DNA of 64,000 bases from Escherichia coli (lineage in GTDB: Bacteria > Pseudomonadota > Gammaproteobacteria > Enterobacterales > Enterobacteriaceae), in assembly GCF_003334785.1 (NCBI RefSeq), contig NZ_QOWV01000007.1; one strand, written 5' to 3'. The translations under genes and the position numbers were made by a program. The notes under the pieces are model-generated. The model had not been told where the DNA came from and did no database searches. It was given only the letters and a program-made list of their open reading frames with translations. Position 1 is the first letter of the stretch. Each line of letters begins with the position of its first letter. Shown here one piece after another: positions 57,554 through 57,891 of the stretch.

Positions 57554-57719
57554 ACTTTTCATACTCCCACCATTCAGAGAAGAAACCAATTGTCCATATT
57601 GCATCAGACATTGCCGTCACTGCGTCTTTTACTGGCTCTTCTCGCTAACCCAACCGGTAACCCCGCTTATTAAAAGCATTCTGTAACAAAGCGGGACCAA
57701 AGCCATGACAAAAACGCGT

Positions 57720-57790
57720 AACAAAAGTGTCTATAATCACGGCAGAAAAGTCCACATTGATTATTTGCACGGCGTCACACTTTGCTATGC
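57720..57790. promoter_or_regulatory. araC-araBAD divergent control region: araO1 / araC promoter / CRP site (approximate)
   Basis: Sequence ...CTATAATCACGGCAGAAAAGTCCACATTGATTATTTGCACGGCGTCACACTTTGCTATGCC... matches the ara regulatory region as I recall it; exact site boundaries not resolved. Confidence 0.5.
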
Positions 57791-57792
57791 CA

Positions 57793-57830
57793 TAGCATTT
57801 TTATCCATAAGATTAGCGGATCCTACCTGA
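57793..57830 (+). promoter_or_regulatory. araI1-araI2 AraC half-sites of the PBAD promoter
   Basis: TAGCATTTTTATCCATA (araI1) and AGCGGATCCTACCTGA (araI2) read directly; PBAD -10 region CTACTGT follows, ~35 bp before the araB ATG. Confidence 0.85.
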
Positions 57831-57891
57831 CGCTTTTTATCGCAACTCTCTACTGTTTCTCCATACCCGTTTTTTTGGATGGAGTGAAACG

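Follow-up and report, generated by a model that had tools for sequence, protein, structure and literature searches.

Is the arabinose control region of this E. coli strain the native divergent switch, or has it been engineered, deleted or damaged by mutation? We addressed this question in a window of 64 kb (the whole stretch of DNA that was analysed) by comparing the araC-araB intergenic region with K-12 MG1655, with other complete E. coli genomes, with pBAD-type vectors and with published functional maps. On these comparisons, almost certainly nothing has been altered here: the region is the native divergent control region of araC and araBAD, in an E. coli strain very close to K-12, and would be expected to operate as the textbook AraC "light switch." As such it is a fully characterised textbook element in its native context and is already known; its value is for annotation and quality control, in that the K-12-type arabinose regulon core (araC, PC/PBAD, araBAD) is complete, without deletion, cassette or point lesion.

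The araC-araB spacer and its genes

Positions 57554–57891 of the window are exactly the 338-bp spacer between the start codons of araC (ATG at 57551–57553, minus strand) and araB (ATG at 57892–57894, plus strand), with araA and araD downstream of araB. Gene coordinates and profile matches placed the regulatory region between the divergently transcribed araC and araB. The genes of the locus, each scoring well above its NCBIfam equivalog cut-off, are:

araC, 56675..57553, minus strand: arabinose-responsive regulator of 292 aa (NCBIfam NF007860 equivalog, 512 bits vs a cut-off of 208)
araB, 57892..59592, plus strand: ribulokinase of 566 aa (TIGR01234, 943 bits vs 583)
araA, 59603..61105, plus strand: L-arabinose isomerase of 500 aa (NF002795, 898 bits vs 622)
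araD, 61560..62255, plus strand: L-ribulose-5-phosphate 4-epimerase of 231 aa (TIGR00760, 449 bits vs 389)

All of these genes were nucleotide-identical to their MG1655 counterparts. When positions 50554–64000 were compared with the MG1655 locus, we found 0 nucleotide differences in 56675–61105 (araC stop to araA stop) and 0 in araD; as this araD is the MG1655 araD, the window does not carry araD139, a lesion found in some laboratory strains. The AraC regulator is therefore encoded intact right next to the region, at 292 aa and above the equivalog cut-off. A longer araC open reading frame of 309 aa (minus strand, 56675–57604), extended by 17 codons to an in-frame ATG at 57604, was considered and rejected. 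RefSeq annotates the 292-aa form, and we treated the extension, which would start just downstream of araO2 in the leader, as a by-product of mechanical ORF listing.

The spacer aligned to K-12 MG1655 without differences (338/338 bases). It was also identical at 338/338 bases in C600 and J53, and 100% identical in many natural isolates. We performed megablast with the 338 bp against 5426 complete E. coli genomes and found the spacer in 5399 of them, at an identity of at least 99% in 3931 and of 95–99% in 1468. Beyond the spacer, collinearity with MG1655 extends over the whole window, from aceF to polB, with yabI-thiQPB on one side of the locus and polB on the other, in the native order, and we found no deletion, resistance cassette or recombination scar in the window relative to MG1655. 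Every element of the region is thus identical in sequence to the reference, the genes are intact and the context is native. These results bear out the claim of an earlier, sequence-only reading of this DNA that the ara locus is neither engineered nor deleted.

AraC half-sites, CRP site and promoters

To locate binding sites for AraC, all 17-mers of the spacer, from either strand, were matched to TAGCN7TCCATA (10 scored positions). All five known AraC half-sites were found on the plus strand:

araO2 GAAACCAATTGTCCATA, 57582–57598, plus strand: 7/10; distal AraC site for the repression loop
araO1L TAACAAAAGTGTCTATA, 57719–57735, plus strand: 8/10, the second-best scorer in the intergenic region; same as MG1655
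araO1R CGGCAGAAAAGTCCACA, 57740–57756, plus strand: 7/10; same as MG1655
araI1 TAGCATTTTTATCCATA, 57793–57809, plus strand: 10/10; high-affinity AraC site
araI2 TAGCGGATCCTACCTGA, 57814–57830, plus strand: 7/10; low-affinity site, bound in the presence of arabinose

Both araI1 and araI2, which the sequence-only reading had described as present verbatim, were exact and occurred once each in the 64-kb window. The single match to araI1 had 0 mismatches and was the only 10/10 half-site match in the 64 kb, and the araI1 sequence and its flanks agree with those published (PMC2241862). The string that had been given for araI2, AGCGGATCCTACCTGA, also had one match with 0 mismatches, at 57815–57830; the full 17-bp half-site starts at T57814, so this string holds 16 of its 17 bases. 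That the two matches arose by chance in an unrelated intergenic region is a reading to which we attach practically no probability. It is refuted by shuffled sequence, in which araI1 had 0 matches even at 2 mismatches (100 dinucleotide-preserving shuffles) and the araI2 string had a mean of 0.02, and by the full spacer, whose 338 bp all equal those of the reference and are flanked by araC and araB.

Seven 17-mers in the spacer scored at least 7/10, compared with approximately 1.8 expected from the window-wide background frequency. The two that are extra to the known half-sites, at 57849–57865 (plus strand) and 57631–57647 (minus strand), are probably chance matches. The former contains a third TCCATA motif (TCTACTGTTTCTCCATA, 7/10) and overlaps with the -10 hexamer of PBAD; its last base is the presumed +1.

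The arrangement of the half-sites was regular. araI2 is a direct repeat of araI1 at a start offset of 21 bp, and the starts of araO1L and araO1R are separated by the same 21 bp. araO2 has the same orientation as araI1 and sits between the putative PC start and the araC start codon. The centres of araO2 and araI1 are 211 bp apart; the published loop distance is 210 bp (PMC11983282). At its downstream end, araI2 overlaps the PBAD -35 hexamer CTGACG by 4 bp.

The remaining elements were read from the sequence:

CRP site TTATTTGCACGGCGTCACACTT, 57761–57782: between araO1 and araI1
PBAD -35 CTGACG, 57827–57832, plus strand
PBAD -10 TACTGT, 57851–57856, plus strand
Putative PC -35 TAGACA, 57733–57728, minus strand
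Putative PC -10 TGTCAT, 57710–57705, minus strand: 17-bp spacer to the -35
araB Shine-Dalgarno GGAG, 57881–57884, plus strand: 7 nt upstream of the ATG

The sequence-only reading had reported the PBAD -10 followed by the araB ribosome-binding site, and both were recovered here, in that order. The right half of the CRP site is a perfect TCACA (57775–57779) and the left half is TTTGC (57764–57768); the site is the same in MG1655 and in pBAD-type vectors. The sequence-only reading had called the araO1/CRP region canonical, and this was accurate, with the stretch equal to the MG1655 sequence base for base throughout. We took the PBAD +1 to be A57865, from the established 27-nt araB leader beginning ACCCG. 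If this is the start, araI1 spans -72 to -56 and araI2 -51 to -35, the CRP site is centred at -93.5, and araO2 spans -283 to -267.

On the opposite strand, transcription from PC would start near 57698–57699. The putative PC -35 falls within araO1L, which fits autoregulation of araC by occlusion; araO1 has been located in the PC promoter (PMC11983282). We also performed a generic, strict-consensus sigma-70 promoter and terminator scan of 57450–58000, which gave no hits, so that neither PBAD nor PC was called. This silence is no argument against the promoters, as PBAD is activator-dependent and the putative PC -10 is without the A at position 2 on which the scan insists; it is what weak, regulated promoters would be expected to give.

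Finally, we placed the window on a published sort-seq map of this region, whose position numbers convert to window positions at one constant offset (P + 57550; PMC11983282). All 16 native nucleotides named in that work match the window, as do the motifs ATTTGC, TATGCC and TCCATA. Specifically, the bases of araI2 match native G268, A275 and G279, and the TCCATA of araO2 corresponds to P43–P48. In the sort-seq data, mutations were depleted at P216 and P227; these map to 57766 and 57777, inside the two CRP half-sites. At the level of sequence, the window has thus been checked independently against a region of characterised function.

Comparison with pBAD-type vectors and other E. coli alleles

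The araC-PBAD module is among the most widely used expression cassettes, and a chromosomal copy could in principle be an engineered PBAD cassette of vector origin. We therefore compared the window with pCAGO (KY563785.1) and pK-1L-2 (CP072462.1), the only two useful vector-type records in the plasmid collection, in which the other matches were mostly chromosome fragments filed as plasmids. These pBAD-type plasmids cover 92–96% of the region at 99.4% identity. The AraC half-sites, CRP site, -35 and -10, down to approximately +1, are the same as in the window. The sequence-only reading had named a substitution in either araI half-site or in the CRP site as the observation that would count against it, and the alignment with the two vectors contained no such substitution.

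The window and the vectors differed at only 2 positions, both outside every AraC half-site, the CRP site and the core promoter. At 57569, between the araC start codon and araO2, A in the window corresponds to G in the vectors and in E. coli B; at 57651, between araO2 and araO1, C in the window corresponds to A in both. The E. coli B strain REL606 has the vector base at each of the two positions, and the identity of BL21 is likewise 99.4%. The difference is thus one of K-12 allele vs B allele and not damage. Judged by these two bases, the widely used vector module carries a B-type, not a K-12-type, intergenic allele.

Shortly after +1, the vectors continue into synthetic sequence, in place of the native araB leader and Shine-Dalgarno that the window retains; since pBAD-type vectors diverge from the chromosome before GGAG, the GGAG found here is native. 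Despite the high coverage and identity of the pBAD-type plasmids, we consider a vector-derived cassette exceedingly unlikely. The window has the K-12 allele at 57569 and 57651, the native araB leader is followed by araBAD, and the yabI-thiQPB and polB flanks are undisturbed. The K-12 alleles and the native flanks effectively refute a vector origin.

We next compared six more divergent alleles of the spacer, including those of JJ1886, L1PEag1, 95-3322, SC434 and O55:H7 DEC5B. All six are 338 bp long and have the architecture seen in the window, with 3–7 differing positions each, and all six have G at 57569. JJ1886, L1PEag1, 95-3322 and SC434 carry a TA-to-AG change inside araI2 (57824–57825) together with a change at 57839; JJ1886 and L1PEag1 additionally differ at 57833, 57647 and 57722 (the last in araO1L). 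In O55:H7 DEC5B, the CRP site is altered at its edge (57762). In this small sample of six alleles, araO2, araI1, the CRP core and the -10 were invariant, and at every position that varied among them the window has the K-12 state.

Two side observations arose from these alleles. The natural TA-to-AG change in araI2 includes P275 of the sort-seq map, where A275T raises expression (PMC11983282). In JJ1886, L1PEag1 and SC434, the annotated araC has an unchanged start codon but spans 846 nt (281 aa) and not 879 nt (292 aa), which implies a shorter AraC C-terminus in these lineages.

Strain background and expected behaviour of the switch

Over the other 60 kb, the window differs from MG1655 at approximately ten point positions and in one repeat-copy change. 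Three differences are missense, namely MurC A444E (25846), MurE I137T (34366) and ThiB V287I (53318). A 1-bp deletion falls in an A-run (43928), a C in the leuO-leuL intergenic region is replaced by G (43943), and five others are synonymous. The human faecal commensal LR-64-2 shares most of these differences, including the 1-bp deletion at 43928, C at 48699, A at 50895 and A at 56361. As several are shared with LR-64-2, they look like natural polymorphism and not laboratory mutations, and the strain looks like a natural phylogroup A E. coli very close to K-12.

The repeat-copy change lies in the araA-araD spacer, where an 85-bp BIME/REP unit is repeated in tandem 5.1 times (98% matching) at 61111–61546, with four Rfam naRNA4 matches. 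The window has five BIME units (clustered REP palindromes) whereas MG1655 has three, as do most E. coli, including LR-64-2; the extra 170 bp gives a spacer of 454 bp vs 284 bp in MG1655. BIME copy number is the only non-reference feature of the operon, and the regulatory region has none. It is conceivable, though we consider it quite unlikely, that five units shift the expression of araD relative to araBA, by changing mRNA stability or by partly terminating transcription at REP hairpins. If so, the altered ratio would affect sensitivity to toxic ribulose-5-phosphate.

Among the top-ranked matches from the 5,426 complete genomes, a single-piece match that included the extra 170 bp was found only in the assemblies of Stbl4, XL10-Gold and "TOP10" (CP081009, CP081008 and CP080620). 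In a base-by-base comparison, the Stbl4 and "TOP10" assemblies differ from the window at 8–9 other positions, and none of the RefSeq complete genomes was an exact match to the window. The sequence-only reading had contrasted this locus with the araBAD deletions common in cloning strains. Such deletions are indeed excluded here. However, the laboratory cloning strains Stbl4, XL10-Gold and XL1-Blue carry the identical region, and for this reason an intact locus cannot separate wild from cloning strains.

The published genotype of TOP10/DH10B includes a deletion spanning ara-leu. In the RefSeq record labelled "TOP10" (NZ_CP080620.1), the leu-ara region is complete and sgrR is a pseudogene; the strain label of this record may be wrong.

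Because the sequence is identical to one that has been dissected experimentally, we took the mechanism of the switch from the literature (PMC11983282, PMC4760080, PMC2241862). Without arabinose, an AraC dimer would bridge araI1 and araO2, approximately 210 bp apart, and loop the DNA between them, and this loop would keep PBAD off and dampen PC. With arabinose, the AraC dimer would move to araI1 and araI2, which lie side by side as direct repeats; AraC at araI2, overlapping the weak -35 hexamer, would then recruit RNA polymerase. Bound just upstream of araI1, cAMP-CRP would promote loop opening and be needed for activation to be complete. Because araO1 overlaps PC, AraC bound there would autoregulate araC and so limit its own synthesis.

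With the K-12-type core complete, the strain is expected to catabolise arabinose, and an arabinose-inducible phenotype would be predicted; we found no sequence evidence in the window against a native, intact switch. Such catabolism would make the strain ill-suited to titratable expression from pBAD unless its araBAD genes were deleted. The sequence-only reading had gone further and stated that the region confirms a wild-type, inducible switch. Its description of an intact locus holds, while "confirms" is too strong for inducibility, since the window does not include araE, araFGH, crp or cya. A defect in one of these, that is, in transport through araE/araFGH or in crp or cya, could leave the locus intact yet arabinose without effect, and the window, 64 kb of the genome, has none of them in its gene list. 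We judge such a defect to be very unlikely, as the strain resembles an ordinary commensal-type member of phylogroup A, with most of its MG1655 differences shared with LR-64-2, and nothing suggests lesions. The preferred reading remains a native switch that is expected to respond to arabinose.

Elsewhere in the window, we identified several Rfam families, all of which are ordinary and expected in such a chromosomal region:

SgrS, 50347–50573, minus strand
Leucine operon leader, 44218–44367, plus strand
TPP riboswitch, 52330–52429, plus strand, upstream of thiB
tp2, 4927–5040, plus strand
PssrA, 22628–22717, minus strand
STnc40, 16912–16981, minus strand

Two further naRNA4/REP copies were found at 16315–16508 on the minus strand.
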